DNA of 49,448 bases, the filler included, from Jimgerdemannia flammicorona (taxonomy: Eukaryota), in assembly GCA_003990765.1 (NCBI GenBank). It is 2 parts of 2 records of this genome, joined end to end, with 100 filler letters (N's around TTAATTAATTAA, not from the genome) between each part and the next. Parts side by side here need not be neighbours in the genome. Positions count along the whole stretch, not along the records: positions 1 to 24,676 come from RBNJ01000942.1; positions 24,777 to 49,448 come from RBNJ01000943.1. The stretch is one strand, 5' to 3'. Below, piece after piece: positions 1,982-43,500 of the stretch (positions are counted from its first letter, which is position 1; each line of letters opens with the position of its first letter). The position numbers and the translations under genes were made by a program. Under the pieces are notes generated by a model. It was given only the letters and a program-made list of their open reading frames with translations. It searched no databases and was not told the DNA's origin.

Positions 1982-4900
1982 ATGAGACCACCAGTATTCC
2001 ATGAATATACCTCAGATGAATCAATCATCACCTTCATTGATGATTTCGAGCAGTACACTGCTGTAAGGACCCTGACAGCAGTACAGCAAGTAGCCCTTAT
2101 GCCCTTTAGTCTATGAGGCCCTGCAAGAGCAGCATTTATAGCTGTAAACCATGCAGGAAATGATGCCGATGCTACACTGTTAGCACAGAAGACCTGGCTT
2201 CAAAATATCTACTACACAGATGAGATCAAGCAAGCTCTAAAGGATCAGCTCAATACAATATACCAAGGAATGAGCAAAGATCCAAACACATTCTATACAA
2301 GAATCCGATACCAGATAATCCTCACAGATTATACTAATACTATCTGAGACTAAGTAGCTGAAGTAATCTTCATGAAAGGAGTCCACCAGAAATAGCCATG
2401 GCCATCTGCTTATTACTAGTAATTCTGGATCTGCCACAGAAGGTCACCTATGCTCAGTAATACTGGATAGCCAGACACCCACAAGACCATACAATGGAGA
2501 GGATCACAGGAGTTAGAATTGAAGCACCCAAGGCAAGTAGTGTGATCCCTACCACAATGATCAATTGAAACACACCTCAGCCAAAAGCTACAGAGAAGCA
2601 AAAGAGCAGTGACCCTTTGGAGGAACTTACCAAGAGGTTTGTGGAAATGACTGCCCACCTGGGAGATGTGGTAAAGGAGATCAGAGGAAGGGACTGCTGC
2701 CCTGTTCAGAAGTTTGCTGCTACCTCAGATAAGAAGAAAGGTACCTGCTATATCTGTGGAGAAGAAGGCCACTACTCCTATGAATACATGAGTGAAACCA
2801 AGCACAAGGCCCAACCAAGTAATACTACTAGAAACAAGGAGTAGGCCAACACAATTACCTTCGAAGAAATTGGAGATTCTGAAGAAGAAGAATAGGAGGC
2901 CTATCCTGCCTAGACCACTAAGAAGAATGTTCACAAGGAACCCTACAAGAGACCACTGGGAAGACCCAAGAAGAATCCAGTGGAAAAACAGATGGAAACC
3001 ACCATGAAAAGCCAAGTTGAAGAGGTGGACCAAGATATGGAGCTGGAGCAAGCAGTTCAAGATATTATTTGAGGAACCACTCTAGCTAGTGAAGGAGAAA
3101 AAGAAAAGAAACTTTGCAAGACCAAGACTTTTAAGTATGATATCTTCAAGGACCTCAGTCAATAAAAGGTCAATACAACTTTTGGTCAGCTTGCAGAAAT
3201 CCTGATATTCAGACAGCAAATGAGGTTCAGACTCACCGAAACAACCAAAGAGCAAGGATGGAAGATAACTGAGGCCAATAATGTTCAAGAGAACTCAGGA
3301 GAAGAAAGTGAAGACAATTGCAAAACCTCTGCCTATGCAATATGCCAAATTGAAGATAGAATCTTTGAAGCCATCATTGATACTAGAGCAAGAGGATGTC
3401 TTCTCAGCAAGAAGGCAGCAGACCACCTAGGTTGGGAAATTGAAGAAGTAACTAAGTTGGTATTCATTACAGCAGATGGCACAAGAGCCACCTCTCTGGG
3501 AAAGATCTGAGATGTCCCCATCAAGATTGGAGGAGCAACTATCCCAGTAGATATAATCACAACCAATGCTACAAACTATGATATCCTTATTGGCAATCAA
3601 TAGCTTCACAAAGCCAGAGCAGTAATTGATCTCAATGCTCAGAAGATGCAAATCACCTATCGGGGATAGAAGATACAAATTCCCATCAATATCAACAAAG
3701 GAGTCTTGCCTGACATGGAGAAAGAAGAGAGTGAGCAAGAGGAAGCTTATATGGTAACTATCCTGAAGAAGAAAGTTGGATAGATGAGTGAAGAAGAATG
3801 GTGCAAGAAGATCACAGAAGGCTATACACCACAAGGAGTCTGTCCTCATGGAATCAAGATGTACTGTATGGAGCATATTAATGATTGCTACCAGTGCACT
3901 ATCAGAATCAAGAAGACCCACCAGGAAAGAAGACAGAAAGCTCTCGAAAAACAGGTCAGGAAAGAGAAGGAGGAGGAAGATGATGAACCACCAGCCCTCT
4001 TGAAGGACAGTGACAATGAAGAAAAAATCAAGATCAAGATTCGAAGGATCCACCCTGATACAGTTTTGCCAGAATACAAGTCAGAAAATGCAGCTGGAAT
4101 GGACATTGGCACAGTAGAAGAAGCTGTACTGGAATCTCAGACAACCACCCTACTTGCAACTGGACTAGAGATGACTATCCCAAAGGATCATATTGGGATC
4201 CTCAAGACAAGAAGCAGCCTGGCCAGAAGTGAAGTTACTATCAAAGGAGGAGTCATCAATTCTGACTATACTGGAGAAATCCTGCTCATTGTTAGGAATC
4301 ACAATCCTACAATCTCATTTCCAGTCAAGAAGAAGGACTGGTTGGTGCAGATGTTGATCTTTCTGATCCTATAACCAAGGATCATAGAAGTCAAGAATTT
4401 GGAGGAAATGAAAAGAGGAAAGAAAGGATTTGGATCCACAGGAAGAGGTGTATTTCCAAGATCACTGAACTGGAGCATAAGAAGGAGGAAACCACAAACA
4501 AGCATAGCTACACCATTAGAAATGAATTCCCACTCAAGGAGGAACTCAAGAAAATACTCTATGAATTCAAGGATGTTCTTGTCATGGATTTCAAGGATAT
4601 CAAAGGAAAGACTCCACACTACTATCATGAGATAGATATTGGAGATACCGAACCAATTTACCAGAAGGCAAGATCTGTCCCACCAGCCTACTGAGAATGG
4701 CTTAGAGAAGAAATCAAGCAGATAGAAGAAGCTGGTATTATCAAAGAAGCCAGCAGCTCCTGGTCTTCACCAGTTGTACTAGCTCTAAAAAAAGGAAGCA
4801 AGCCTGGAGAATTTGCCCCAAGACTCTGTGTTGACTATAGAAAGCTCAATGTGGTTATTAAGAAGGATCACTAATCACTGCCCCTCATCAGTGACATCCT

Positions 4901-7130
4901 TATAACATTAGGAGATGAAGCACAGTACTACAGCACCTTGGACTTATACTCAGGATTCCACCAAATTGGACTCACAGAAATGGCAAGTGAAAAATCAGCC
5001 TTCATAACCCCAGATGGAACCTACATCTACCTGTGAATGACATTTGGGATGTGCAATACACCAGCAAGCTTCCAGCAAATGATGAACAAAATCTTCCACT
5101 ATAACATAGAAAGATGGATGATGGTTTATATTTATGATGTAATCATCTACAGCAAGATACCTGAAGAACATCTACAGTATATATGGCAGATAATGGAGAG
5201 ACTAAGATAACATGACCTTTACATCAAACCCAAGAAGTGCAAGTTTGCAGAAATTGAGATCTCCTACCTTGGCCATATTATCAATCGAGATGGAATACAC
5301 ACAGACCCCCTCAAGATATAAGCAGTAGCAGTATACCCAAGACCCACTACTGTTACAGAAGTCCAAGCCTTCATGGGACTTACCTCCTACTATTGTAGAT
5401 TTATTAGAGAATTCTCCAACATCACAGATCCAATCTATGAACTCAATAAGAAGGACACCAAGTTCCAGTAGACTGGTAGACAACAAAAAGTATTTGATGA
5501 ACTCAAGATCAGACTGACCCAGGCACCCATCCTCAGATGACCCAATTGGACTCAAGAATTCATTCTGCAAACAGATGTAAGTGTATAGGGGCTAGGAGCA
5601 GTTCTAGATCAAAAGGAAGACAAAAAAGATTATGTCATTACATATCTTAGCCATAGAACCCAAGGAGCTGAAAAAGAATACGAATTCTACAAGCTGGAAT
5701 ATCTCGCAGTTATCTGGGCTGTGGAAAAGTTCCACTACTACTTAGCTGGAAGACACTTCACCATCCAGACAGACCACTTGGCTCTTACCTGGCTACTGAC
5801 AACTGGACAACCCAAAGAAATCTATACTAGATGGATAATGAAGCTACAAGCCTATAATATAACCATTGTATACTGCCCTGGAAGAACAAATTCCAATACA
5901 GATGCTCTCTCACAGATACTCCAAAATACTGCCAACCAACAAATCAATCATGAATAAGGAACTCTACTATAAAATCATCACATACCTGAGACAGCAAAAG
6001 ATGCCCCAACATCTGAAAGAATAGACACAAATAATTATCAACAGAACATGGAAACAATTCGAAACCGATGGAGAAACACTGAAGAAAGAAAAACTACTAG
6101 TCATACCAGAACATAAGAAGGAGCAAGCAATGAAATCAGTACATGAACTCAGCCATCTAGGAGGAACAAATACATACAACAAGGCAAAAATAATGATATG
6201 GTGGCCAGGAATGGAGAAAGATATCAGACAATTTGTCAAAAGCTGTGACAAATGCCAGAAACAGAAGTAAGACCAACAAAACCAAGCCCCAGGATCAGCA
6301 CACATAGAACCAGTACCATTCACTCACATAGTAATGGATATAATTGGCCCTCTACCCTTGACCTTGACTGGCAACTAATATATCATTATCATCATAGACC
6401 TTTTTACAAAATGGATAGAAGCAGGACCCCTCAAGGAAGCCAATGCACAGTTAATCACTGATTTCTTCCACAAAGAAATCATCTGCTGATTCAAAACTCT
6501 AATGCAAGTAACTACAGATAGAGGAACAAAATTCATGAACCAGTTCTTTAAGGTTCTCCACAAGAAGTACAAGATCCAGTACATTCAGACCACAGCCTAT
6601 CACCCTTAAGGAAATGGACAAGTAAAAAGAACCAACAAGACCCTCAAGAATATTATTGCCAAAATCTGTGATAACTATGAAAACTGGGATCACTATCTGC
6701 CAATAGCATTATCTGCTCTCCAAGATATCAAATCACAAAGTACCCACTTTACTCCTCAAGAGATGCTGTTCAGAGAAGAAAGTTCTCAAGAAACCCTATC
6801 ATCTAATAGAGATGCTGTATGGAAACATATGGATGGAGAAATATGGAAACTACACTGAATCAGGAAGAGAGCTGAAGATTACATAACCAAGGCACAGATA
6901 CTACAATAGAAGAATGCAGAAAAGACCCACAAACCCTTAGAGATTATCAAGATAGGAGACAAAGTTCTGGTGTATCAGAATATAGTAGAAGCTTCATAGT
7001 CACAAAAACAGAGCCCAAGTGGGAAGGACCTTACCTTGTGCAAGATATTAAAGGGACCATCTTTTGGCTACAAAAACTCTTGGGTACAATCATCCTCACT
7101 ACTATTTACTGAAACTGACTCAAGAGGTAA
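1982..7130 (+). pseudogene. gag-pol of A: Gag with zinc knuckle, protease, Cys module, dUTPase, RT, RNase H, integrase
   Basis: CYICGEEGH knuckle; AIIDTRA (decayed DTGA); dUTPase motifs AAGMDI, RSSLA, GGVINSDYTGEI, RGKKGFGSTG; RT LCVDYRKLN and YIYD (decayed YIDD, ~5126); RNase H QTDHLAL; IN motifs. Many stops and frameshifts. Confidence 0.93.
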
Positions 7131-7131
7131 C

Positions 7132-7593: not shown

Positions 7594-7624
7594 ATAGGAT
7601 GTTTCAGGGATGAATCACCTATTT

Positions 7625-9239: not shown

Positions 9240-10857
9240 TGTAACAGTAACTCTAGAATAATGATATCAGTATAGGAGATAGTCTTTTCTTGCAAGCCAC
9301 CAGATTGGAGCACAAGAAGATCATATGGTATACAAGATAAGCAATTATAACCAACTGTGAGTCATTGTGACCACAGTATAGGCATCTTGAGAAATATAAA
9401 AGAATGATCAAGAAACCACAGTAGCAGCAACTTAATAAGATCTATCAATTCCAAAATAGCTCAAAGACTTACTACAAATAAAATGCCTGCTGCTCACCAA
9501 ACCTCAAAGTTAAGGAACCACCAAGATACCTCAGTCAAAGAAAGGATATTTCAAGACATTAGAAGAGCCATGAGGACCTGTATAAGAAGGATTCCTAGTA
9601 TTAACCTAGGTACTACAGATTCTTATTACTATATCCTCTACCACTATGAAATGGAAATAAGGATCACCATTGCTCCTGAATGTCTCCAAATGTGGTAGGA
9701 GTATGAAATAGGAAATCTCCTCTACTGGGAGTTCCTACAGGCTAGCCCTCAAGAGTTACAAGATACCACTCCTATAGATATATACAGCTAAGAAGATCTA
9801 TCAGATCTTCAGGCATGCACTATGGTCAATTCCCAACTTGGAGTATATTAGAGTCTCAGACTTCAGAGATCTATCAGCCTGCTGTATTAATGCACTAGAA
9901 GTTAGAGTGGCTACAGAAGCCCAGTCCACTATCACTCTCAATAGTAATGAAGTAGAAGACTTCTGGTATTCCATCCTCTAGGACAACCCAGACCAATTTC
10001 TGCAAAGATTGATCTCAGTATTCCAAGGTCCAAGTATCTAGGTTAGATCTCTCCAAGACCCCACATTTGTCCCCTATTTTATGGAAGAGAACCTTATAGA
10101 TTGGAGAGCTCCCAATTTTTCTGCTGAACATAATGATATTATTAGCAATGATGTCATTCTGCATAATATATATAAAACATATGATCTATATAATAATAAT
10201 GAGATGGACAAAATATTTGCAGACCTCATCTCCTCAAAGACATCCTGACCTCAGATAAGGATAAAGCTTCTATAGTCCTGAACATTTTGCTCTAAAGTCT
10301 CTTGATTATACTGAATTATACCAGCACTCTTTTCCTATATAACAGCTGTTCCTCTATCAGTATTCTGATGTGACTCAGAATTATTCCAGCACTCTTTTCC
10401 TGTGTAACAGCTGTTTCTCCACTGGCATTCTGATATGACTCAGAATTATTCCAGCACTATTTTCCTATACTACCAAAATTATATCAATATCCTGAACCTG
10501 TGCAACCATCAGTATCAATACTGGAACTTAGTAGTTTTCTATATTCTGGTATTTTATTTTAGTTATTGGAATTTATATTTAGCTTTATATCTTAGCAATC
10601 ATTGAATTATATTTTGTATAAATACCCCTCTTATTTCCTCTAAAATAAAGTTAGTTCCTCTCAGTACAATATATACAATTCCTTACAAGTAATCTAAGAG
10701 ATAACAAGACAGTTTAAAGATAAGAAGTTTGAGGACTATAAGACCTTGGGAAGGCACTCCAATAAGAACTTACTTATAACAAACTTGAGTTAGTCTAAGA
10801 GATATATCTTGAAGAGAATCTGATGTATTTGAAGGACTCAGAAACTACTATGTGACA
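9240..10857 (+). repeat. 5' LTR of B1 (1618 bp), containing a decayed ORF at 9483-10295
   Basis: tgtaacag...tgtgaca; repeated at 16537, 20972, 36480, 38897 and 46142. Confidence 0.93.
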
Positions 10858-10983
10858 ACTTGGTACCCATTGGCTGGTAATTCAAGATGAATCCCTCACT
10901 TTCAAGCTGAAAAATGAACAACTACCACAACAACTACCCTGACTACAAGAGTCATCCCTGCAAGAATTTAAGATAAGATAGAA

Positions 10984-13900
10984 ATATATCTCTCTACATT
11001 CTATAGATATACTACTGAAGAGTCAATCCTGACCTTCATTGAAGACTTTGAACAATTTGCTGCTGTACAAGTTCTTGGTGTGGATGCACAATTGGCTCTT
11101 CTACCTGTCAGCCTCAGAGGACCTACCAGAGACAAGTTCAATATAGTCACTATTACTAGTAATAGTGCAGCCAAACTTGCCAATATAAAGGCCTTACTCA
11201 GAATAATATACTATACTGAAGAGATCAAGCAAGCTCTCAAAGATCAACTCAATACTATCTGTCAGAGACTTAGTGAAGATCCCAACTTATTTTATATCTG
11301 AATCTGTCACTAGATTATCTTAGCTGGCTATGATGATGCCCTCAAGGAATAAATAGCAGATTCAACCTTCCTCAAAGAAGTTCACTCTGAAATTGCCCTA
11401 GCAATCTGGTCTACTCTAGCTATACTAACTCTTGATCAGAAAGTAGTCTTTGTACAGAGATATTAGACTGCCAGACACTCTGCCAAATACTTAATGGAGA
11501 AAATAACTGATATCAAGATAGAGCTATCAAAGCCAACTAGTATCATATCTGCTATAGTTGTAAACAGACAACTATCCCCATCTACCCCCAAGGTAGCCAA
11601 AGCTGACCCAGTGGAGGAACTTACCAAGTAGTTCACCAAGATGACTGCATACCTTGGTGATGTTGTTAGAGAAGTCCAAAGTACCAATAGGAGACCAGTG
11701 TAGAGATTTGCAGCTGCTATAGAATAATGTAATATTACATACTTCAGATATAGAGAAAAAGGCCACTACATATGCAAAGAGCTGCATGACCAAAATAAGA
11801 TACAAAGCCCAACTAAGCAATGCTAGTAGAACCAGAGAACAAATCAATATAGTAGTCATCAAGGAGATTGATGATACTGATAATGAAGAATACTATGAGG
11901 AGCTCAAATTCTACCCTGCTACTGAAGGTACCAGAACTAGGTCCAAGCCCTAAGACAATAAGAGCAATAGCAAGCCAGTTGGAAGATCAAAGAAGACAGC
12001 TATTACTATCTAAAGTAAGATCCAATCTGAGGAGATTGATCAAGATATGGAGTTAGATGAAGCTACTCACCAAATCATTGAAGACACTACTCTAGTCTCA
12101 GGAGAAAGCAAAAGTAAGAAGGAACAGAAGCTGTGTAAGACCAAGATCCATCAGTATGATATCTACAAGGATCTCAAGGAACAGAAGATCAATGCTACTT
12201 TTGGACAGCTAGCTAAAGTCCCTGCCTTCAAACAGCAGTTGAGAGTAAAACTTGCAACTACTGCCAAAAATCAAGAGTACAAGATTGTAGAAGCTCACAA
12301 TGCACAAGAAGAATCCAAAGACTCAGACAAAAAATCTGAAGACCAGTACAAAACATCAGCCTATACTCTATATCAGATTAAAGATTGTATCTTTGATGCC
12401 ATCATTGATATTGGTGCTGGAGAATGTCTCATGAGTAAGAAGACAATTGACTGTCTAGGCTGGGACATTGAAGAGTCTACCAAGATGGTCTATGTTACAA
12501 TAGATAGTATACAAACTACCCCCCTTGGCAAAATCTGAGAAGTCTCTATTAAGATAGGAGGAGCCACCATTCCAGTAGATGTGATTGTTACAAGCACCAC
12601 CAACTATGACATTCTTGTTAGCAATCAATGACTTCATAAGGCCAAGGCCATTAGTGATTCCAATGCCCAGAAGATGCAGATCAACTATAGAGAAAGAAAG
12701 GTACAAGTCTCTATCAATATCTATAAAGGAGTTCTATCAGATATAGAGGAAGGAGATGAGGAGGACACAGAAGTCTTCATATACTCAGTGAATAAGAACA
12801 AGAACAAGATACCCAAGCTCACAGATGAGCAGTGGTACAACAAGATCATCAATGGCTATGCTCCTCAAGAAAGATGTCTCCATAGTACTAGGATGTACTG
12901 CTCTGAATACCTGAATAACTGCTGGTCCTGTATCAGTGAAGTCAGAAAAATCCACCAATAGAAATATAAGCAAGAAGCTGCCAAAGTAAAAAGGAAAGTC
13001 AAAAAAGATGACCAGCCCCCCAAGCTTCAAGCTGACAGTAATGATGAGGAGGAATAAGAACCAGATATCACCCTTAAGGTCAAGAAGTTCTATCCCAAAG
13101 CCAAGATCCCAGAATATAAGACCAAATAATAGACCTTGCTAGCATTCAAGATGCTACTCTTGAACCACAGACCACTACCCTACTTGGCATTGAAATTGGA
13201 GTCAAGTTGCCAGAGAACCATGTTAGAATTATCAAGACCAGGAGCAGTCTGGCCAAAAGTGAAATCTCAGTTAAAGGAGGAGTAATTGACCCTAATTACA
13301 CTGATGAGATCTTCCTCATAGTTAGGAATCACAACCCCACTACCCCATTCAAGGTCAAGAAGCATGACAGGATTGGCCAGATACTGATCTATGAAATCAA
13401 GAAGCCTAAGATCACTGAAGCCATTAAACTCATCAAGACCAAAAGAGGAGAACAAGGCTTTGAATCTACTGGAAGAGGAACCTATGCCACCATCAAGATT
13501 ACTAAACTTGAGCATAAGAAAGACAAGAACAATAACAAGCACACATACCATTGGAGAAAACTTTCCCCTAGAAGAACAACTTCACAAGATCTTGCACCAG
13601 AATGAAAGAGTACTTACTACAGACTTTAGAGATATCCATAATCAAGAACCCAAGTACTACTATGAAGTTAACACTAGTGACACCAAACCCATCTACCAGA
13701 AAGCCAGACCCATAACATCTGCCTATAGAGAATGGCTGCAAGCAGAACTCAAGAAAATAGAAGAAGCTGGAATTATCAAGTAAGCTATCAGTCCCTGGGC
13801 TTCACCCATTGTCCTTGCCCTGAAGAAAAGAAGCAAGCCTGGAGAGTTTACACTAGACTCTGTATTGACTACAGAAAGCTTAATATAATTACTAAGGAGG

Positions 13901-16225: not shown

Positions 16226-16536
16226 GCATGTTCCATAACCAGCAGACTATCTGTCTGAACCATTCTCTAAGGGATACCATACTAGCAACTACTCATCTAT
16301 GAGACTTTTGAAGCCAGAGGAGTTTGAACCATCAACTGATTGATCAAGATCAGAATCAGGCCCTTACTCTATATGAAGGGAGTGACTCTTCACCATTATA
16401 CCAAAATATATAGGGAAGATGCTAGCCCATAAACACCACTTTTTAACCCCTTATCAGAGGTTTTGGGATCAGCAAATTTTTCAGGACTGGATCAATGAAT
16501 AAGGATACTCAAGAAGATCCTTATTTAGGAGAAAGA

Positions 16537-18166
16537 TATAACAGTGACCCTAGAATGATGACATTAGTACAAGAGACAGCCTTTCCTCACAAGCTACTAG
16601 ATTAGAGTACAAGAAGATCATACAGCATATAAGATAAGTAATTATGACCAACTGTGAGTCATTGTGACTACAGTACAGACATCTTGAGGAATATAAAAGA
16701 AGAATCAAGGAACCACAGTAGCAGCAACTCAATAAGACCCACTAATCCCAAAATAGCTCAAAGACTTACCATAAATAAAATATCTGCTACTTACCAAACC
16801 TCAAGGTCAAGAAACTACCAAGGCACCTTAGTTGAAGAAAGGATATTCTAAGACATCAGAAGAGGTATGAGGACCTGTACAAGAAGGACTCCTAGTATTA
16901 ACCTGGGTACTGCAGATTCTTATCATTTTATTCTCTATCACTGTGAAATGGAAACAAGGATCACCATTACTACTGAATACCTTCAAATATAGCAGGAGTA
17001 TAAAATAGAAAACCTCCTCTGCCGGGAGTTCCCACAGGCCAGCCTTTAAGAGTTATAAGATGCCACTCCTATAGATATATATGAAACAAGGACAGCTAAG
17101 AAGATCCATCAGATCTTCAGGTATATACCATGGTTGATTCTCAACTTGGAGTATATTAGAGTCTCAGACTTCAGAGATCTGTCAGCCTGCTATATCAATG
17201 CACTAGAAGCCAGGGTGGTTACAGAAGCCCAGTCCACTATTACCCTCAATAGTGATAAAGTAGAAAACTTCTAGCATCCCATCTTTCAGGACAACCTAGA
17301 CCAATTTTTGCAAGGATTGATCTCAGTATTCCAAGATCCAAGCATCCAGATTAGATCTCTCCAAGACCTTACATTTGTCTCCTATTTCATGGAAGAGAAC
17401 CTCATAAATTAGAGAGCCCCTGATTTTTCTGTTAAATATGATGACATCATCAGTGATGACATCATCCTATATAATATATGCAAAATGTATAACCTACATG
17501 ACAATGATGAGATAGATGAAATATTTGTGGACTTCATCTCCTTCAAAGATATCTTGATCTTGGACAAGGATGAAGTCCCTATAGTCTTGAACATTTTGCT
17601 CTAAAGTCCCTTGATTATACTGAATTATACTAGCACTCTTTTTCTATAAAATAGCTATTCCTCTATTAGCATTCTGATGTGACTCAGAATTATTCCAGCA
17701 CTCTTTTCCTATATAACAGCTATTCCTCCACCAGCATTCTGATGTGACTCAGAATTATTCCAGTACTATTTACTTATACTACTGAAATTATATCAGTATT
17801 TTGAATCTATACAACTATCAGTGCTAATACTGGAACTTAGCAGTTTTTTATATCTTGGTATTTTATTTTAGTTATTGGAATTTATATTTAGCTTTTTATC
17901 TTAGCAACCATTGAATTATATTTTGTATAAATACCCCTCTTATTTTCTCTAAAATAAAGTCAGTTCCTCTTAGTATAATATATATAATTCCTTACAAGCA
18001 ATCTAAGAGATAACAAGACAGTTTAAAGATAAGAAGTTTGAGGACTATAAGACCTTAGGAAGGCACTCCAATAAGAACTTACTTATAACAAACTTGAGTT
18101 AGTCTAAGAGATATACCTTGAAGAGAATCTGATATATTTGAAGGACTCAGTAACCACTATATGATA
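16537..18166 (+). repeat. 3' LTR of B1 (1630 bp), containing a decayed ORF at 16780-17604
   Basis: Direct repeat of 9240-10857; termini decayed to tataac...atgata. Confidence 0.93.
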
Positions 18167-19032: not shown

Positions 19033-19078
19033 AGAAAAATAGATAATATAATTATCTTCAATAAGATAGCTTAGGAAT

Positions 19079-30753: not shown

Positions 30754-31657
30754 GTTGTTTACTTGAGGCGGTTGGACTGCTGGTAGTGGTGTTACTGGTA
30801 CTACTTGAGATACTGGTGCAGAGTGTGATGGGGTTCTTTGGGTCTGTGTAAGTTGCTGGAGTAGTAGTTGTGGGTCTGGAGTGAGGGCTTGATAGATAGC
30901 TGTTTGTTGCTGTGTAGGTGTATTCTGTCCTGATGGATGTGTGTCTCCTTCGGTGGTATATCCAGGATTGAATTCAGTGAGATACTCCTCCTCTTCTTCG
31001 GTTTGGTCCCTGTGTAATTGGGTTTGCTCGGCGTCAAAGTAGACAGAATCAGTTGTATATCTGATTTCAGACAGACTTAATTCAAAGTCAAGTTCAGGTT
31101 CGGTATTGGTTTCAGGTTCGGGTAGAGCTGTAGCAGGGCCTGCTTCAGGTTCGGGGTCAGGTAGTTGATGAAGGATTTCTCTTGCTTCTTCCTTAAGAAT
31201 ATGGCGGGCCTTGCTGTTCTGGAATCAGTAGTATAATGCGGTCTTGGTCCTGGTACGGTGATAGTCGGTAGAGTTGAGCCACTTGGCTACAGAGGCTTGG
31301 GCTTCATGAGGAACTAAGACTAGAAAGACTGCTGCTGGTTGTCCTAGGTCGCTCGGATTTGTGGAGCTGACAAAACTCTTGTTGAGAAGAGTAAAGAAGG
31401 CTTCAATAAGACCTTCTTTGTCTTGACTTGCTGGGTGTAGTGCAAGGAGTTCGGTGAATAGGGTTTCGCCTATTTGCTGGTTTAATCAGAGTACTTCCTT
31501 CTTTGAATGAAGTTTATCCCACTTGTTGCAGGTGTGGAGGTCAAATTGTCCTTGTACGTCAGGTTCAGAGGTTGGGCTTTATACCAACTTGTAGGAATTC
31601 TCAGAGGGGTTTGTAGTGGGGTGAGGAAGCGTCTTGAAGCGGAATTGGATTGTAAAC

Positions 31658-31668: not shown

Positions 31669-31671
31669 AGT

Positions 31672-33732
31672 TGTAAGAGGGTTACTTTTTAGGGTAACCA
31701 TTACGTAGTTCTAGAAGGGTTTTCTGGAAGTTCTGGATATTCTGGAAGACCGTTTTCTTATGGTCAAGATCAATTTCATATGGAGTACGTCCTCTACGCT
31801 TATTGATTTCAAGATCGGGTTGATGTCTCAACCAAAGTCCTTTTCCAGACTAGTTCTGGATGTTCAGGATTTTCCGTATTTCAGGAAGTTCAAGAAACTA
31901 AGACCGGCTTAGTTGAATCAGCGTATTGCTGCAGACAATACCCAATTAGGAAATTTCGTGATGGGGTTAGGAGTAGGACCTAACAGAGAGCGGATTTACT
32001 TAAGAGTGGTTTGTGGGTTATGGAATAGGTTTATTTGCTATTCATAATATTGCTATACTAGGAGTATTTGTGTGAAGGGTATTGTGGGGAAGTATTCAGG
32101 AATGTTCTTGTCTGTTCGAGTCTGAGATTCTGAGGTCTGGGGGAGGGGGTATTTATACTAGTGAGGGGCTATCTGGACTATGCTGAATATGGATGTAGCA
32201 CTAAGTGCCTTGCTGAGTCAGAATGCAGTCACATAGTACAAGTGTGATCTGATATGTCAAGAGATCGTCTGACTGCTGAGTCAGTTCACAGTCACGTCAT
32301 ACAAGGCTAATCTATCTATACTATGACTGCTAGACTATTTATAGGTTTAGGCACTATCTGGGTAGTCCTCGATGACATCACCATCGATTGCATCATCTCT
32401 GATGAAGTAGTCATCTAGGAATAATGGTTCGCGGATTACTTCTCCTTGTTGGCTGAGGTAGTAATATATTGGAACTTCATCTCCATCCCACAGAATAGCA
32501 TCGTCTGTTTCATATGCTGGATAAGGTGTTGGTGGGCGAAGGATGGGTGTACTGTCTTTGCTTTCATCGGATTTGCTATCTGCGTACCTTCTATAGATTA
32601 CAGCACTATGAGTTGTGGGGTTGTAGTAAGCTGGCGGCTGTGATTCAAGTCGCTCGTACTCAGGTGGTGGAGTGGTTGGTTCAATCTCGAGAGTTGTCTG
32701 AAGGTATAGGTTGTGTTCTCCGGTCTCTTCATTGTAGTTGAAGTAATCGGGGGTGAACGTGGGTTGGTATTCGTGCCAGTGGTCATTGTCCCAATAAGTC
32801 TTATATACAGTTATGAACTGTTGTAAGTTCATTGGCAAGGTTGGCGGAGTGATCAGGGTTGGCAGAGATCCTTGGCTAGAGGTCATGTCGGCATCAGAGG
32901 GATCATTGTCTTCTGCTTCGTCTTTATCGAAGTGGATTATATCGTAGACGTCCTTCATAGCGTATCCGACTTGAGGCATTTGCAGAATGTGGTCATCAGG
33001 GTGCGGGAAGGTTCTGTCTGTAGTTTCGACATACTCGAGGTACTTGTGGTTGATTTCTTGTATCATGTCATCGATTTGGCTGTAGGACAGGGTAGCAACC
33101 ATTTCGCTGGTAGTGACTCGGAGGCGGGGAATAAAGGTGTTGTACTCATAGAAGAGTTCTCGATGTTTGTGGGCGATGAGCTTCTGGTGTTGAGACATCT
33201 GGGTAATGTCTGTATCATGGTGGTATTCGACCATGTCTTCCAGGAGGCAGCCGATCTGGTAGTAGCTTGAGATTTGTCCGATTCAGTGGGCCTCGCTAAG
33301 CATGTTCAGGGCGTTCCATCAGGCTTCCACGAAGTAGAGGGGGGCCAGGCTATGGATATTCATGAGGGGCAGAGGGGGTGTAGCTCGGTTGATAATGGCA
33401 TTCCAAATGTCAGCACGGATGCGGTTGTAGATCTCGGTGGTCATATTTGTGTGTTTGGAAGTTGTAGTTGTTGTTTGTTTTGGTTCTCTGATTTGACGCG
33501 TCTCAGTGCTCAGTATATATGCATTTGGTCCTGATTGGTAATGTTCCGTTTGTGTAGATCTTGTGTTCCGTGACTTGGTATTGACTCAGCTTTGTGCGCT
33601 ATGACTTCGGTTTGACTCAGCTTCGTGATCAAGCAGGTGATTTCCAGATTTGTTCAGAGCTCGCGTGTGATTTCAGTGGCTTGTTCAGAGGGTGACGTGT
33701 AATTTCAGTGGCTTTGAGGTTGTATGCTTACA
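31672..33732 (-). repeat. 5' LTR of C (2061 bp)
   Basis: TGTAAG...CTTACA termini. The start matches the 3' LTR remnant and the end abuts the PBS. TATAAATACCCC at ~32146-32157 (minus), the same motif as in B LTRs. Confidence 0.85.
32347..33444 (-). pseudogene. LTR-encoded accessory ORF of C (365 aa)
   Basis: The 295-aa ORF extends in frame to an ATG at 33444 through two TGA codons: MTTEIYNRIRADIWNAII...EA*WNALNMLSEAH*IGQISSYYQIGCLLEDMVEY. CCAAT (~33535) and TATATA (~33515) lie upstream. Confidence 0.8.
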
Positions 33733-34340: not shown

Positions 34341-34344
34341 GTCC

Positions 34345-37300
34345 AGACTGGCCTCCTACTATAGAAGATTTATCAAAGGATACTCCAATATTGCAGCACC
34401 TATCTATGAGCTACTGAAGAAGGAGATCAAGTTTAAATGAACTATAAAATATTAAGAAAACTTCAATGAACTCAAGACCAAGTTGACCCAAGTATCCATT
34501 CTCAAAAGATCTAATTGGAATCTAGAGTTCATCCTGCAGACAGATACAAGTACTATAGAACTTAGAGTAGTATTAGCTCAGAAGAAAGATAGACATAAAT
34601 ATGTTATCTCCTATGTAAGCTGAGATATCCATGGAGCAGAACAGAACTATGAGTCATGTAAGCTTAAATGTTTAGCAATAGTCTAAGCAGTAGACAAGTT
34701 TCACTACTATCTAGTCAGAAAATATTTTACTATTCAAACAGACCATTCTACTCTTATCTGGCTATTCCACACTTTGAATCTTAAAGAAATATATATCAGA
34801 TAGATCTACAGACTGTAAGAGTATAACTATACTATCAAATATCACTCAAGAAGAACCAATTCCAATACTGATATACTTTCAAGAATACCCTAAAATATCT
34901 CCATCAAGACTCTTTAACATGAATAAGAAGCTATACTATGGATTAATTAGCTATCTTGGGCAGTAGAAGATGTCCAACTATCTTGAACCCTGGACTATCA
35001 CTATTATTAACTAAACTTGAAAATAATTCAAACTAAACAATACTATACTTAGAAAAAGAGAAAAACTCATCATATCTAAATATAAAAAGTATTAAGTAAT
35101 AAAGGAAGTATACAAACAAGAATACTTAGGAGAAATCAATATATATAATAAGGTAAAAAGAACTATATAGTAGCCTAAGATAGAAGAAGACCTGTATCAA
35201 TTTGTCAAAGAGTATGATAAGTACTAAAAACAGAAACAAGATCAGCAAAACTGAGTATCTAAATCAAATCTATCTCCTTCTACTACATTGCAATAGATAT
35301 CATTGGATCACTACTAGTAACTCTATCAGGAAATTATTATATTATAGTTATTGTAGATCTCTTTACTAAATAGATAGAAGCAGGAGCATTACAAGAAGCC
35401 AATACTCTCTCTATTGCTGACTTTCTATATTGAGAAATCATCTACTACTACAAGATACTAAGAAAAATCACCATAGACTACAGCATAGAATTTATTAATA
35501 GATTCCATGAGATAATGTATCAGAAATATAAGATTTAGCATATCAAGACTACTGTATATCACTCTCAAGAAAATAGATAGATAGAAAGAACAAACAAGAT
35601 CCTCAAGAACATTCTAGCCAAAATCTCAGACATATATGAGAATTGGTATAACTACCTCCCAACTACTCTCTCCATCCTATGAGATATATGGTTACAGAGT
35701 ATACACTTTATCCCAAAAAAACTGCTCTTTGGAGAAGAAGATTCTGATAGAATCTCAGCTACAAATCTAGATCTAACTTGGCAACAGATTGACTCAGAAA
35801 TCCAGAGACTATACCAAATTAGGAAGAAGGTAGAAGATTATATCATCAAGTCACAAGTACTAATAAGAAAGAATATAGAAAAGAATCACAAGACCCTAGA
35901 ACTTATTCAAATCAGAGAAAAGTTCTTACTATATTAAAATATAGTAGAAGTCTCATAGTCATGAAAACTGGAGCCCAAATGAAAAATACCCTTCTATATA
36001 CAAGATATATATCAAGAGAACTATCTTCAGGCTTAAAAAACTCTCAGGAACTATACTGTCTACTATAGTACACAGGAACAGACTTAAAAAATACTATAAA
36101 TCTATATAAGAAAAGTAAAATATAATAACTACTCATAAGATTCTAGTCTACAAATCATAATAGTATATTCTGTAACTAGCAGACAATCTGTCTGGACCAT
36201 TCTCTAAGGGATATAGTACTAGCAACTACTCATCTATAAGACTTTCAAAGCTAGAGAAGTTTGAACTATTAACTGATTAGTCAAGATCAGAATCTGATCT
36301 TTACTCTATATAAAGAGAGCTACTCTTCACTATTATATCAAAATATATAAGGAAGATACCAGCCAATAAACACTACTTTTTAATCCTCTATCAGAGGTTA
36401 TGAGATCAGAAAAAATTTTCAGACTAGACTAATAAATAAAGATATTCAAAAGAAGATTTTTATTCAGGAGAAAGATATATGTAATAGTGATCTCAGAATA
36501 GTGATATCATCATAGGAGATAGTCTTTCATTAGATTAGAGTATAAGAAGATTATATAGTATGACTCACCCAGACTATAAGATAAGTAATGATGATCAACC
36601 TTGAGTCATAATGACCACAAGATAGATATCTCAAGGAATATAAAAGAAGAATCAGAAAACTGCAGTAGCAGTAACTCCAATAAGACTTACAAAAATCTGA
36701 AACAATTCAAAAGACTTACTATAAATAAAATGTCTACCACTTACCAAACTGTAAGGTCCAGGAACTACCAAGGCTTCTCAGTCCAAGAAAGGATGTTCCA
36801 AGACAGCAGGAGAGCTATAAGGATCTGCACTAGAAGGATCTCTAGCCTTAACTTTAGCACTGATAACTCTTATCACTTTATCTTCTACTGCTATAAAATG
36901 GAGACAAGAATCACTACTACTATCAAATATCTCTGGATGTGGTAAGAATACAAATAGGTAGTGCTCTGAATGAGTCAATCTGGATGGATTTGAATCAACC
37001 ATTGTTTTGATTTCTAAATTAGATAATTAAATGTTTACATCAATAACTCAATGAATAATTATCCAAATTTAATGATCTTAATATCATTTGAAAGCCCTTA
37101 ATAAGGCCTTTCTAATGATACTAAGAACATTAAAATCAGATTATACATTGCTGAGATATTAGGGAAAATGTTCTATTTGATAAAATTTCCAAAATTGGCA
37201 AATCAAATAATTTCCAAAATTGGCGATTCAGACATTTTCCTTCATAACTCAGCAATGCATGATCTGATTTCAATGTTCCTGGTGTTATTAGATAGGCCTT

Positions 37301-38601
37301 ATTAAGGGCTTTCAAATAACATCAAGATCATCAGATTTGGATGATTATTCATTGAGTTATTGATGTAAATATTTAATTGTCTAATTTGGAAATCAAAACA
37401 ATTATTGATTCAAATCCATCTGGATGGGATTTGAATCCTATCTGAGTTGATCCAATCCAGATTAAATTGACTCATTAGGAGCACTATAAATAGAAAACCT
37501 CCTCTACTGGAAATTTCCTCAGACTAGTCTCTAAGAGATATATATAAGATACTATCTCAATAGATATATAGAAAAGGTAGCCAAAAAGATCCATCAGGTC
37601 TTCAGGCATATATCTTGATCAATTCCTAACTTGGAGTATATCAAAGTCTCAGACTTCAAAAAATTGTTAGTCTATTATATAGATGCATTAGAAGTCATAG
37701 TGACTATAGAAACCTAATCTACTATTACTCTCAAAAGTGATAAGATAGAAGAGTTCTGAAATCTCATCCTCAAGAACAATCCAGATCAATTTCTGTAAGG
37801 ATTAATCTCAGTATTTCAAGGCCCCAGTATCCAGATCAGACCCTCTCAAGATCCCACCTTTGTAGAAGAAAATATTATAGATTGAAGAGCTCTTGATCTT
37901 CTTGCTACTACTGCTGAATATGATGACATCATTATCAATAATATCATTCTGCTAATCAATATATATAAAATGAATATAATACTTACAGAAATGTTTACTG
38001 ATCTTATTTTTTTCAAAGATATCCCCATCTCTGACCTCTAGTCTTAATGATAACAATAAAGATGAAGCTTTGAGAATTTTGAACATTCTACTCTAATTTG
38101 TTTATATAACTATTTATTTGAACACTTGAATATTCTGGCACTCTGACTTTATACAACTGTCAGAAATTATTTCAGCATTCTGATCTTATACAACTAATTA
38201 TATGAATACTCAAATTTGTACTTATAATCTGACGTTTTCTATATTCAAATATCTTATTTGGTTATTGGATTTTATATTTAGCTTTATATCTTAGTAACTA
38301 TTGAATTATATTTCATATAAATACCCCTCTCATTTTCTTTGAAATAAAGTCAGTATTAAAACACTCAAGCATTCAAATATCCAACTACTCAAGAGCATAA
38401 AAGTTCCAGTCCTCTACTCAATTCTATGCAAGTAAATCTAAGAGATAACAGAATAGTTTAAAGATAAGAAGTTTGAGAATTATAAAACCTTGGAAAGATA
38501 CTTCAATAGAACTTACTTATAAGAAACTTATAGTTAGTCTAAGAGATATATCTTAAAGAGAATCTAACATACTTAGAAAACTCAGTGCCCACAACATAAT
38601 A
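34345..38601 (+). mobile_element. 5'-truncated family B copy B2 (end of RT, RNase H, IN, 3' LTR 36480-38601)
   Basis: Collinear with B1 from ~14411; PPT aggagaaaga at ~36466; LTR ORF 36730-38096 interrupted by a MITE. Confidence 0.9.
36959..37486. mobile_element. hAT-like foldback MITE (528 bp) inserted in the B2 LTR ORF
   Basis: TIRs tagtgctctgaatgagtcaat...attgactcattaggagcacta; degenerate 8-bp TSD caaatagg / taaataga; arms ~36985-37170 and ~37233-37420 are inverted copies. Confidence 0.88.
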
Positions 38602-38896
38602 GTAGTTATATTATAAATTTTATTATAACTTATTCAAACTTCTTAATAGAAATTAACAAAGACTAGAGTAAACTGATAAATACTTAATTATTAGACTTAT
38701 TATACTAGCAAAAATTACAACTAGTAATATAGTTCTTGATTTTCTTAATTATATTAAGTCAGCAGTATTTTCTCAATTCTAAGGTAACTAGTAAGTAAAG
38801 AGTTATAATATTCTTACAATATCTTATAGCAGAGTTTTATATTGTTTAATAGATAGACTATGTCTTAATAATAGATCAAGTTCTTCTTAATGATAT

Positions 38897-40470
38897 TATA
38901 ATGGTGACCTCAGAGTAATGATATTAGTATGAAAGATAGTCTTTTCTTATAAGTTACCAAATTAGAGTACAGGAAAATTATATAGTATGACTCATCCAGG
39001 CTACAAGATGAGCAATAATGACTAATCATGAGTTATTGTGACTACAAGATAGATATCTTGAGAAATATAAAAGAAGAATCAAGAAACTACAGTAGTAGCA
39101 ATCTAAACAAAGCTCACAGAAATAGTTCTAAAGACTTACTATAAATAAAATGCCTGCTACTTGCCAAATCTCAAGGTTCAGGAATCACCAAGGCCTCTCA
39201 GTCTAGGATAAGATATTCCAAGATATCAGAAGAGTTATGGAGACCTATACAAGAAGGACTCCTAGTGCCAATCTGAGTACTGGTGACCTCTATCATTATA
39301 TCCTCTACCATTATAAAATAGAAACAAGGATCACTATTGCTACTAGATATCTCTGGATATGGCAGGAGTATGAAATAGAAAATCTCCTCTACTAAGAGTT
39401 CCCTTAGACTAGTCTCCAGGAGATTCAAGATGTTATCTCTATAGATATATATGAAATAAGAACAGCAAAGAAGATTCATCAGGTCTTCCAGCATATACTA
39501 TGGTCAACTCTCAACTTAGAGTATACTAGAATCTCAGACTTCAAGGAACTGTCCACCTGCTACACCAATGCACTAGAGACTATAGTGGCTATAGAGGCTC
39601 AGTCTACTATCACTCTTAATAGTAATAAAGTAGAAAACTTCTGGTATCTCATCCTCCAGGACAATCCAGATCAATTTATATAGAGATTGATCTCAGTATT
39701 TCAAGGTCCCAGCATCCAGATTAGACCTCCCCAAGACTTCACATTTGTTTCTTATTTTGTAAAAGAGAATGTCATAGCTTGGAAAGCTCCTGCTGCTGCC
39801 AAACATGATGACATCATCTGTGATGATATCATCCCATGTGACATATATGAAATGCATGACCTATATGATGAGATAGATGAAATATTTGTAGACCTCATCT
39901 TTTTTGAAGACATTCTGTCTCTGACCTCTGGCCTTGATAGTGATAAAGATGAAGCCTCTATGGTTCTGAACTTTCTGCTTTAAGTTCTTGGTAACACCAG
40001 ATTCTATCAGCATCCTTTTCCTATATAACTATTATTCTTCTGGTATTCTGATCTTGTGTAACTCAAAATTCTTCTGGTATCCTTTTTCTGTACCACTGAA
40101 ATTCTACTAGTATCCTAAACTTAAACAATCATTTGTTCAGACAACTATAGTTTTCTATGTTCCAGTATTTTATTTAGTTATTGAAATTTATATTTAGCTT
40201 TATAACTTAGCAACTATTGAATTATATTTTGTATAAATATTCCTCTTATTTTCTTTAAAATAAAGTCAGTTCCAGTTCACTTATACTCAATTCTATATAA
40301 GCAATCTAAGAGATAATAAGACAGTTTAAAGATAAGAAGTTTGAGGACTATAAGATCTTAGAAAGACACTCCAATACAAACTTGCTTATAACAAACTTGT
40401 AGTTAGTCTAAGAGATATACCTTGAAGAGAATCTGATATATTTGAAGAACTCAGTGACCACTATATGATA
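38897..40470 (+). repeat. 5' LTR of B3, containing a decayed ORF at 39150-39983
   Basis: Direct repeat of 46142-47723; the ATG at 39150 is in frame with ORF 39687-39983. Confidence 0.92.
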
Positions 40471-40596
40471 ACTTAGTACCTATTGGCTGGTGATTCAAGA
40501 TGAATCTCTCACTTTCAAGCTGAAAAACTAATAACCCCTACAATAACTATTCTGACTACAAGAGTCATCCCTGCAAGAATTCAAGATAAGATAGAA

Positions 40597-43500
40597 ATGT
40601 ATCCCCCTACATTCTATGGATATACTACTGAAGAGTCAATCCTGACCTTTATTAAAGACTTTGAACAATTTGTCACCATACAAGCTCTTGGTATAGATGC
40701 ACTATTGGCCCTTCTATCTGTCAGCCTCAGAGGACCTGCCAGAGATAAGTTCAATATAGTCATTATTACTGATGCTAGTATTGTCAAACTTACCAATATA
40801 AAGAATTTCTTCAGAACTATATATTATACTGAATAGATCAAGCAAGCTCTCAAGGATCAACTCAACACTATCTGCCAGAGACTTAGTGAAGATCCCAACT
40901 TATTCTATACCTGAATCTGCCACCAGATTATCTTGGCTGGCTATAATGATGCTCTCAAAAAACAAATAGTGGATTCAACCTTTCTCAAAGGAGTTTACCC
41001 TGAAATTGCTCTAGCAATCCAGTCTACCCCAGTTGCTCTGACTCTTGATCAGAAAGTATTCTTTGTATAGAGATATTAGACTATCATATACCCTACCAAA
41101 CACTCAATAGAGAAAATAACTGGTATCAAGATAGAGCTATCAAAGCTAACCAGTATCATATCTGCTATAGTTGTAAATAGACAACTATTCCCACCTATCT
41201 CCAAGACAGCCAAAGCTGACCCAGTGGAGGAACTTACCAAGTAGTTTGCCAAGATGACTGTACACCTTAGTAATATTGTTTGAGAAGTCCAAAGTGCCAG
41301 CAGGAGATCAGTACAGAGATTTGTAGTTACTATAGAAGAATGCAATATTACATGCTTCAGATGTAGAGAAGAAGGCCACTATGCAAAGAGTCATATAACT
41401 GAAATAAGATACAAAGCCCAATCAAGCAATGCTACCAGAACTAGAGAACAAATCAATACAGTAGTCATTAAGGAGATTGGTGATACTGATGATGAAGAAT
41501 ACTATGAGAAGTCTGAATTCTACTCTATTATTAAAGATGCCAGAACCTGGTCCAAGCCCTATAATAAGAAGGGCAATAGCAAGCCAGTTGGAAGACCAAA
41601 GAAGATCTCAGCTATCACTATTCAAAGCAAGGCCCAACCTAAGGAGATTGATTAAGATATGGAATTAGATAAAGCTACCTACCAAATCATTAAAGATACT
41701 ACTCTAGTCTCAGAAGAAAGTGAAAGCAAGAAAGAACAAAAGCTGTGTAAGACCAAGATCCATCAGTATGATATCTATAAGGACCTCAAGAAACAGAAGG
41801 TCAATGCTATCTTTGAACAACTAGTCAAGATCCCTGTCTTCAGACAGCAGTTGAGAGTAGAACTTACAACTACTGAGTATAAGATTGTAGAAGCTCACAA
41901 TGCATAAGAAGAATCTGAAGACTCAGACAAAGAATCTAAAGATCAGTACAAAACATCAGCCAATACTCTATGTCAGATTGAAGATTGTATCTTTGATGCC
42001 ATCATTGATACTAGTATTAGAGAATACCTCATAAGTAAGAAGGCAATTGACTGCCTAGGCTAGGACATTGAAGAGTCCACTAAGATGGTCTATATCACAG
42101 CAGATAGTATATAAACTACCCCCCTAGGCAAGATCTGAGAAGTTTCCATCAAGATAAGAGGAGCTATCATCCCAGTAGACATGATTGTTACAAGTACTAC
42201 CAACTATGATATCCTCATTGGCAACCAATAGCTTCATAAGGCCAAAGCTATTATTGACCTCAATGCTAAAAAGATACAGATCAACTATAGAGGAAGAAAG
42301 GTATGAGTCTCTATCAATATCCACAAAAGAGTACTATCAGACATAGAGAAAGGAGATAAAGAAGACACAGAAGTCTTCATACACTCAGTGTATAAGAACA
42401 AGAGCAAGACACCCAAGCTCACAGATGAGCAGTAGTACAACAAGATCATCAATAGCTATGCCCCTTAAGAAAGATGTCCCTATGGTACTAGGATATACTA
42501 CTCTAAACACCTGAATGACTGCTGGTTCTATATCAGTGAAGTTAGGAAAATCTGCCAACAAAAGTATAAGCAAGAAGCTGCTAAAGCAAAAAGAGAAGCC
42601 AAAGAAGATGACCAGTCCCCAGAGCTTTAAGCTGATAGTGATGATGATGAGGAATAAGAACCAGACATCACTCTTAAGGTCAAGAAGTTTTATTCCAAAG
42701 TCAAGATCTCAGAATATAAGACTGAAGGAGCTATAGGAATGAACCTTACTAGCATTCAAGATGCTACTCTCAAACTACAGACCACCACTTTACTTGATAC
42801 TGGAATTGGAGCCAAGTTGCTAGAGAACTATACCAGAATCATCAAGACCAGGAGTAGTCTGGCCAAAAGAGAAATCTCAGTTAAAGGAGGAGTAATAGAC
42901 CCTAATTATACTGGTGAGATCTTCCTCATAATTAGGAATCACAACTCCACCACCCCATTCAAAGTCAAGAAGTATAATAGGATTGGCCAGATACTGATCT
43001 ATAAAGTCAAGAAGTCCAAGATCACTGAATCCATTAAACTCATCAAGACTAAGAGAGGAGAATGAGGCTTTAGATCTACTGGAAGAGAAGTCTATACTAT
43101 TACCAAGATTACTGAACTCAAGCACAAGAAAGATGAGGATCAGAACAAGCACACATGTATTATTGGAGAAAACTTTTCCCTAAAAGAACAACTTCTCAAG
43201 ATTCTGTACCAGAATGAAGGAGTACTTACCACAGACTTCAGAGACATCTACAATCAAGAACCCAAGTACTACTATGAAGTTAATACTGGCAATACCAAGT
43301 CCATCTACCAGAAAGCCAGACCTATACCACCTGCCTACAGAAAATGGCTGTAAGCAGAACTCAAGAAAATGAAAGAAGCTGGAATTATTAAGCAAGCTAT
43401 CAGCCCCTGGGCTTCATCTATTATCCTTGCCCCAAAAAAAGGAAGCAAGCTTAGAGAGTTTGCCTCAAGACTCTGCATAGATTACAGAAAGCTCAATACA

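Follow-up and report, generated by a model that had tools for sequence, protein, structure and literature searches.

What is the short Cys/His stretch that accompanies dUTPase in several retroelements of Jimgerdemannia flammicorona, and why does it lie on one side of the enzyme in some of them and on the opposite side in another? The question is raised by a 49,448-nucleotide stretch of assembly GCA_003990765.1, joined from records RBNJ01000942.1 and RBNJ01000943.1 and called the window here at its full length. The window is AT-rich (GC content 21–45% across 2-kb windows) and is composed of nested, dead Ty3/gypsy long terminal repeat (LTR) retrotransposons. Four of these, elements A, B1, B3, and C, carry the stretch. 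We conclude that the stretch, hereafter the module, is a genuine, undescribed, and unnamed accessory domain of dUTPase-carrying gypsy elements. Judging from its sequence and its predicted fold, it probably binds zinc. The best explanation, which we regard as on balance probable, is an unnamed pol domain of approximately 45–50 residues that is found in a few dUTPase-carrying Ty3/gypsy elements, is a probable zinc binder, and might serve as a tether for the dUTPase.

The module has the pattern C-x-H-x12-C-x2-C. A hidden Markov model (HMM) of 16 natural copies was searched against the six-frame translation of the window with a cut-off of independent E-value (i-E) ≤ 1. It gave exactly four matches, and nothing else reached i-E 1 (Table 1). 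These are the four stretches listed in the initial annotation, with coordinates shifted by a few bases. The peptides given there for A and C were exact, and that for B1 was exact in the frame starting at 12770. The B3 copy has two in-frame stops, and its His and last Cys have become Tyr. In element A, the aspartic protease (PR), the module, and the dUTPase are in one frame, and the module and dUTPase share one open reading frame (ORF; 3784–4374). The dUTPase of B1 is in a different frame from its module, with a frameshift between the two. Pfam and the PR and dUTPase HMMs agree with the two gene orders as first described, namely PR-module-dUTPase-reverse transcriptase (RT) in A, B1, and B3, and zinc knuckle-dUTPase-module-PR-RT-integrase (IN)-chromodomain in C. 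The dUTPase is of the trimeric type (PF00692). In C the match spans profile positions 3–128 of 129 (E 2.6e-33); the dUTPases of A, B1, and B3 match by HMM but are decayed.

We searched for relatives exhaustively with HMMER, using a three-copy profile against 1,835,955,588 representative proteins at E ≤ 1e-3. The search returned 16 proteins, 14 of them real. The other two (P0016 and P0017) are repeat proteins in which a few columns matched many times, and they were set aside as spurious. A Pfam dUTPase adjoins the module in 10 of the 14. In P0019, a dUTPase starts about 80 residues past the module (dUTPase HMM i-E 1.1e-9), and its cluster mate P0051 confirms this dUTPase (i-E 3.7e-27). The flanks are readable in 11 of the 14 matches, and a dUTPase stands beside the module in all 11, in both orders. 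Eight have the dUTPase before the module (P0004, P0005, P0007, P0008, P0009, P0013, P0015, and P0018), with PR following the module in P0007, P0008, and P0015. Three have the module before the dUTPase (P0006, P0014, and P0019), with PR preceding the module in P0014. The order of C is also present in four further copies, namely P0003, P0034, P0035, and the locus L001. A word-index search with the module found only P0003, which is approximately 95–97% identical to C. A metagenome locus scan with a 3-row alignment found one locus, L001, a decayed C-like copy and the sole DNA relative. All relatives of the module come from metagenome or read-archive sources. The initial annotation had held that the module keeps company with dUTPase, and it had named a generic retroelement domain occurring independently of dUTPase as the contrary case. 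No informative match among the 16 in 1.84 billion representatives lacked a dUTPase, in libraries that under-sample transposon ORFs. In the protein libraries searched, the module is rare and is not a generic retroelement domain.

The initial annotation recognized no named domain in the module, and searches of Pfam, PDB sequences, solved folds, BFVD, and the ESM Atlas were likewise blank. Pfam at E ≤ 10 gave only sub-threshold noise on three module segments, and no family recurred on the module among all 17 alignment members. RING_Vps8, zf-C5HC2, and DUF4379 each touch 1 of the 17, below cut-off. A profile search of PDB sequences found nothing meaningful (best E 0.86). Foldseek returned 18 rows from the PDB and 65 from BFVD (viral predicted folds) at E ≤ 10, and none from either at E ≤ 0.001. 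VIA-align against 48,161 chains gave 207 at Z ≥ 2 and none at Z ≥ 5. Its best row (Z 3.8) and its homeodomain-like three-helix rows are at noise level. The ESM Atlas clusters held no usable match to the module. Two specific identities were considered and rejected. The zf-CCHC knuckle (PF00098) has the spacing C-x2-C-x4-H-x4-C, which differs from that of the module, and PF00098 has no match on the module segments at E ≤ 10; its matches in 2 of the 17 members correspond to the gag knuckles that P0007 and P0009 carry. The N-terminal HHCC domain of integrase (PF17921 / PF09337) has the pattern H-x3-7-H-x20-35-C-x2-C. It has no Pfam match on the module, and hhalign against the IN zinc domain of C itself gave 0.6% probability over 9 columns. 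Searches of the openly readable literature, supplements not included, found no description of such a module.

AlphaFold2 with a 17-row alignment gave a confident fold for the module of C, with a mean predicted local distance difference test score (pLDDT) of 85.2 and a predicted template modeling score (pTM) of 0.62. The predicted elements are a helix (residues 6–15), a hairpin (22–23/29–30), a second helix (33–38), and a third helix (40–54). C24 and H26 are located in the turn of the hairpin, C39 is just ahead of helix 40–54, and C42 is in the first turn of that helix. In outline, the fold is a helix, a Cys/His hairpin, and a helix pair. A model of the dUTPase and module together reproduces the same secondary-structure elements. 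Taken with the sequence, this secondary structure suggests that the four ligands (C, H, C, and C) most likely hold one zinc ion. Treble-clef fingers bind one zinc ion through two ligands from a beta-hairpin knuckle and two from the first turn of a helix. The predicted layout of the module resembles theirs, with one ligand pair in the hairpin and the other at the helix N-terminus. It differs in that neither VIA-align nor Foldseek gave a significant structural match and in that a C-x-H knuckle is unusual.

Conservation was scored over 17 aligned natural copies, in 16 of which the first Cys and the His are scorable. The first Cys is kept in 16/16 with no exceptions. The His is kept in 14/16 (Tyr in P0008 and P0012), the third ligand Cys in 16/17 (Tyr in P0006), and the fourth ligand Cys in 16/17 (Tyr in P0012). 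Each of these Tyr residues results from a G-to-A or C-to-T transition, the way in which these elements decay. The spacing from His to Cys is 12 in all 17 aligned copies, and the C-x-H-x12-C-x2-C spacing given in the initial annotation is borne out. Further conserved positions are located in the first helix and ahead of the hairpin (an acidic-acidic-x-aromatic motif, an aliphatic residue, and G-aromatic-x-P), and the His is followed by a conserved M-Y. Identity to C across open metagenomic ORFs is 33–58%, with one outlier at 24%, and its maintenance argues for purifying selection.

We also considered that there is no functional domain here, and that the Cys/His pattern arose by chance or is a decayed gag knuckle or a remnant of the integrase HHCC domain. 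Every copy in the window is in a dead element, and the sub-cut-off Pfam touches on single members could be read in this way. The retention of 33–58% identity and of a fixed spacing in two deep lineages and in open metagenomic ORFs speaks against it, as do the confident fold prediction, the spacing unlike that of a CCHC knuckle, and the negligible hhalign probability for the integrase zinc domain. We find this explanation hardly credible.

Other dUTPase carriers were also compared. Word-index searches with the dUTPase of C gave 4 longer matches and 11 of similar length, and they led to a second family (P0022, P0023, P0038, P0040, P0043, P0045, P0056–P0058, and P0032). Its order is zinc knuckle-PR-...-dUTPase-RT-RNase H, and the region from PR to dUTPase contains three C-x-H-x(7-10)-C-x2-C units in tandem; P0032, truncated at its N-terminus, has two of them. 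This three-unit family may be remotely related to the module, with the unit multiplied. Like A and B, P0022 and P0038 have PR before the dUTPase and belong to the same deep PR lineage. They differ in a shorter ligand spacing, in having no N-terminal helix motif, and in the distance to the dUTPase, which is approximately 180 residues from the last unit and approximately 290 from the first. Between the first unit and the core of the module HMM there is a weak match (13.5–19.8 bits), too weak to claim homology. A Cys/His regular expression found nothing in the copia-type dUTPase carriers P0020, P0021, and P0027, in P0029 (for which the copia assignment is tentative), or in P0025/P0048 and P0026. 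P0025 and P0048 have the dUTPase after RT, with no Cys/His unit in 1133 residues and no recognizable PR. P0026 has the order PR-dUTPase-RT with no module between PR and dUTPase; its sequence starts immediately past the point at which a module preceding PR would stop. Clear absence of the module among dUTPase carriers, as judged by the regular expression, is confined to the copia type.

Position relates the module to a second neighbor. Whichever the gene order, the module is the constant piece at the junction of PR and dUTPase. Because it always lies at this junction, it is tied by position to PR as much as to dUTPase. The module could be a domain that flanks the retropepsin and controls or orients its dimerization or self-excision, with the company of dUTPase being inherited history. 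The transframe region before HIV PR and the G-patch after betaretroviral PR would be its positional counterparts. The module adjoins PR wherever PR is visible, on one side in C, P0003, P0007, P0008, and P0015 and on the other in A, B1, B3, and P0014. In the latter four the gap from PR to module is a steady 41–47 residues, and the gap from module to dUTPase is approximately 40–86. The PR tree has two deep lineages, so that the association with dUTPase may represent one or two historical events. Against this, dUTPase is present in all 11 informative matches, and gypsy proteases without dUTPase abound in such protein libraries. It is also awkward for a specific role in PR folding that one lineage carries the module on the N-terminal side of PR and the other on the C-terminal side. 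We consider a protease-linked function unlikely.

The tether explanation would work as follows. After PR cuts the polyprotein, the module would remain on the dUTPase. The zinc fold and the basic last helix would then tether the dUTPase to nucleic acid or to the reverse-transcription complex, and the tethered enzyme would keep dUTP low where cDNA is synthesized, as the betaretroviral nucleocapsid (NC)-dUTPase fusion does. In the order of A and B, module-dUTPase would mimic that fusion; in the order of C, the gag knuckle and the module would lie on either side of the dUTPase. Net charge from C-x2-C onward is positive in 12 of 14 scorable copies, and this positive stretch gives the tether weak support. 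The M-PMV fusion and the rotifer Juno elements, both described below, serve as precedents. By analogy with the betaretroviruses, the module may stay on the dUTPase after processing and hold it at nucleic acid or the reverse-transcription complex, a step we put forward tentatively, as possible but short of probable.

The module might instead fold back onto the dUTPase trimer and modulate its C-terminal arm (motif V) or its oligomeric state. In the order of C, a short variable linker joins it to the preceding Gly-rich C-terminal motif, and in the Mason–Pfizer monkey virus (M-PMV) the fused NC domain alters the conformation of the dUTPase C-terminal arm, according to the available text of PMC1802613. 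In the joint AlphaFold2 model, each domain is confident, pTM is 0.59, and residues 111–150 of the arm and linker have pLDDT 56–78; the domains appear loosely tethered rather than packed. The A/B lineage moreover attaches the module to the opposite end of the dUTPase through a charged linker of 40–86 residues. Docking of this kind is quite improbable in our view.

Several points weigh against the tether explanation itself. The co-occurrence with dUTPase represents two, perhaps three, deep lineages in the PR tree and not 11 independent events. The module is as near to PR as to dUTPase in every case, and the tie could be to PR. Three matches (P0010, P0011, and P0012) have only 157, 82, and 63 residues, too few for any neighbor to be visible, and carriers without dUTPase could escape protein libraries in which eukaryotic transposon ORFs are under-sampled. 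Taken as a whole, the module has a net charge of just −4 to +5. A stronger version, in which the module is a dedicated zinc-finger tether for dUTPase, a new nucleic-acid-binding family recruited with the captured dUTPase and shuffled between deep gypsy lineages, is distinctly unlikely. Were it true, the module and dUTPase would act as a functional pair, able to be placed before or after the protease. To our knowledge, the capture of dUTPase by retroelements is well documented, and its retention at reverse transcription is understood only for betaretroviruses, through the NC fusion. A separate zinc module in both gene orders would then be a second, independent solution for holding dUTPase at reverse transcription. 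The module adds a domain family outside the current coverage of Pfam and PDB and, if it accompanies dUTPase in both orders, offers a handy annotation marker for dUTPase-carrying gypsy elements. Its practical weight is modest: the family is small, its sequences are so far soil-derived only, and its function is inferred.

How the module came to occupy both positions was addressed with trees. The PR tree has two groups at 100/100, one containing C, P0003, P0008, P0015, and P0026, and the other A, B1, B3, P0014, and the three-unit family. Gene order corresponds to these two groups, save for P0026, which is in the first group and has PR before the dUTPase. The initial annotation had placed the stretches in different lineages. 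A/B and C are indeed distinct (31–34% identity in RT-RNase H and 29% in integrase, by tblastn with the C proteins). A and B are not independent of each other; because they group together in the PR and dUTPase trees and share 64–70% DNA identity, the window holds two lineages and not three. Elements A, B1, and B3, a B-type fragment, and a solo LTR form one family group, in which A is more distant. The dUTPase tree is poorly resolved (7 of its 23 inner branches are starred), too poorly to tell one capture from several. The dUTPase of C is most similar to that of P0025 (50% identity), which has no module and carries its dUTPase after RT, and is about 36% identical to those of A/B. Holding all module-linked dUTPases monophyletic cost 17.7 log-likelihood units, with an approximately unbiased test p value (p-AU) of 0.035; with the three-unit family and P0032 added to the dUTPase set, p-AU was 0.059.

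The module tree, based on 55 columns and with 12 of its 14 inner branches unstarred, does not reproduce the PR split. P0009, with the order and the gag type of C, joins A/B at 82/86, and P0014, with the order of A, lies near C. Monophyly of the A-order modules was rejected (p-AU 0.009). The module tree separates C and P0014 by a path of 1.33 substitutions per site, the PR tree by one of 3.68. The initial annotation had proposed that the domain was exchanged between lineages. These conflicts, together with the nearness of the C dUTPase to that of the module-less P0025, hint at movement of the module between retroelement lineages by recombination, as opposed to descent from a common ancestor followed by a swap in the order of PR and dUTPase. 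So few columns and so few starred branches speak against reading the conflict as exchange, as do states shared across lineages that are possibly ancestral and the hypermutation of the A/B copies. Monophyly of the full set of Cys/His-linked dUTPases is not rejected, and the test on the narrower set is borderline. Recent transfer should leave high similarity, and no pair of sequences has it. The tree conflict could equally well stem from strong constraint on so small a domain in combination with shared ancestral states. The PR and module trees disagree, exchange as such is not established, and we regard it as possible but doubtful. Independently of how it arose, we infer that the mirror-image orders need at least two rearrangements or captures, since insertion of a single cassette of dUTPase and module cannot yield both.

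The copies in the window have decayed. Decay has proceeded almost entirely through transitions: B1 and B3 differ by 755 transitions and 66 transversions. The observed/expected CpG ratio is 0.00 in B1 and in B3, 0.07 in A, and 0.50 in C, the younger element; over A, B1, B3, and the AT-rich spacers together it ranges from 0.00 to 0.08. The residual C/T differences mostly precede an A (353/601). The pattern looks like hypermutation of the repeat-induced point mutation (RIP) type and/or deamination of methyl-CpG. All four module copies of the window are relics in dead elements, and the functional case therefore rests on the open relatives elsewhere.

Table 1. Positions of the modules, their neighboring genes, and other features in the window.
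Feature	Positions	Strand	Evidence and remarks
Element A	2000–7000	+	
A aspartic protease	3325–3654	+	PR HMM i-E 1.4e-16; decayed; read by eye in the frame starting at 1501, in-frame stops; frame shared with module
Module copy A	3781–3936	+	Module HMM i-E 1.8e-27; open; tblastn 45% to C, E 9.9e-11
A dUTPase	4057–4443	+	PF00692 E 1.7e-16 on ORF 3784–4374; dUTPase HMM i-E 8.8e-33; one in-frame stop
A RT-RNase H	5016–5915	+	tblastn with C proteins, 33.9% identity
A integrase	6151–6756	+	tblastn with C proteins, 29.0% identity
Element B1	9240–18200	+	LTRs ~1.5 kb
B1 protease	12356–12682	+	PR HMM i-E 8.9e-10; decayed; also read by eye
Module copy B1	12812–12964	+	Module HMM i-E 1.5e-24; open, all four ligands kept; tblastn 45%, E 1.2e-8
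B1 dUTPase	13132–13473	+	PF00692 E 4.2e-20; dUTPase HMM i-E 5.8e-30
Element B3	38961–47731	+	LTRs ~1.5 kb
B3 protease	41974–42285	+	PR HMM i-E 9.7e-11; decayed
Module copy B3	42409–42564	+	Module HMM i-E 1e-18; decayed; tblastn 40%, E 7e-6
B3 dUTPase	42697–43083	+	dUTPase HMM i-E 8.5e-31; tblastn
C 5' LTR core (element strand)	33521–33732	−	94% identical to 24984–25195
C gag zinc knuckle, C-x2-C-x4-H-x4-C	29761–29811	−	PF00098 E 6.1e-4, 20.2 bits versus cut-off 20.8; residues 114–130
C dUTPase	29275–29667	−	PF00692 E 2.6e-33, residues 164–290; dUTPase HMM i-E 3.6e-55
Module copy C	29101–29262	−	Module HMM i-E 2.6e-28; open; residues ~297–350 of ORF 28264–30150
C aspartic protease	28726–29067	−	PF13975 / PF08284, residues 361–477; PR HMM i-E 2e-52
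C RT-RNase H	26926–28083	−	Pfam
C integrase	25828–26925	−	Pfam
C chromodomain	25624–25827	−	PF00385 E 1.8e-18; one in-frame TGA separates it from IN
C 3' LTR core (element strand)	24984–25195	−	212-nt direct repeat
C internal TGA, first bases	30153, 28266, 28143, 28086, 26928; at IN/chromodomain 25830	−	
AT-rich spacers	1–1900, 18200–20900, 22600–24600		

Element C has the Pfam domains PR, RVT_1, RT_RNaseH, Integrase_H2C2, and rve in this order between flanking LTRs, as a Ty3/gypsy element does, and the chromodomain after its integrase places it in the chromovirus branch. Inspection by eye, without a Pfam scan, revealed no chromodomain in A or B1. From gag to integrase (region 25624–31224, minus strand), C keeps to one frame, which five internal TGA codons interrupt; a sixth TGA precedes the chromodomain. 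Three of the internal stops are spanned by P0003, in which two of them are replaced by Arg and the third by Gln. The C family is represented by pieces in soil and root metagenome runs, abundantly in several of the soil runs, and in runs of one organism; run shares are small (≤0.25). The family is multi-copy, with 205, 1547, and 137 contigs in three runs, and all 30 bins of 28264–30150 are covered. One RNA-library contig of 275 nt overlaps 28367–28641, outside the module, and is no evidence of module transcription. Between the 5' LTR and gag of C, in the gag frame, is an open stretch of 311 residues (32347–33282, minus strand) with no Pfam match, separated from gag by 1.1 kb full of stops. It may be an unknown leader, an N-terminal gag extension, or an extra ORF.

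Two N runs of 44 each (24677–24720 and 24733–24776) are immediately outside the LTR of C. A solo B-type LTR is located at 20974–22543, and the 3' fragment of a further B-type element, from RT to LTR, at 34346–38609. The solo LTR and the B-type fragment abut C, which suggests insertion of C within or next to an older B copy; the 5' half of that copy was not found. Three faint remnants are also present, resembling a dUTPase (951–1085, minus strand; dUTPase HMM i-E 0.0099), gag (48137–48511, minus strand; tblastn E 5.6e-7), and RNase H (48982–49248, plus strand; tblastn E 2e-4).

Among the closest known systems are fungal chromoviruses, with which C shares its chromodomain. According to the available text of PMC2864245, their dUTPase occupies either the amino-terminus of Pol or the interval from PR to RT, and its independent acquisition is suggested there. 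PosPlaTy3-3, -4, and -5 and the Phanerochaete and Tuber Tmt1 elements described there are, like those of the window, Ty3/gypsy elements with a trimeric-type dUTPase in one or the other of these positions. The two domain orders are thus already published for fungal chromoviruses and are not new (PMC2864245). Compared by description, these elements are presented in that text with CCHC and HHCC motifs only and with no module beside the dUTPase (PMC2864245). The Juno LTR elements of bdelloid rotifers likewise have an accessory zinc motif beside a dUTPase located between PR and RT, as described in the accessible part of PMC5408684. There the motif is an extra zinc knuckle after the dUTPase, the elements are from animals, and the comparison is by description (PMC5408684).

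A working model, nucleic-acid tethering of dUTPase, is offered by the betaretroviral NC-dUTPase of M-PMV and mouse mammary tumor virus (MMTV p30), in which a zinc finger is covalently joined to a retroelement dUTPase (PMC1802613 and PMC4531489, as far as their text is available). The M-PMV protein is a natural zinc-finger/dUTPase fusion that is trimeric and, by the same available text, binds oligonucleotides (PMC1802613). The betaretroviral order NC-dUTPase-PR matches the gene order of element C. The betaretroviral finger is described as the gag CCHC knuckle, joined by frameshifting (PMC1802613, PMC4531489). The module is unlike it, being a separate C-x-H-x12-C-x2-C unit with flanking helices that is additional to the gag knuckle and is found on either side of the dUTPase. 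The module thus takes its place within a known kind of system, that of retroelement polyproteins with a captured dUTPase and zinc fingers.

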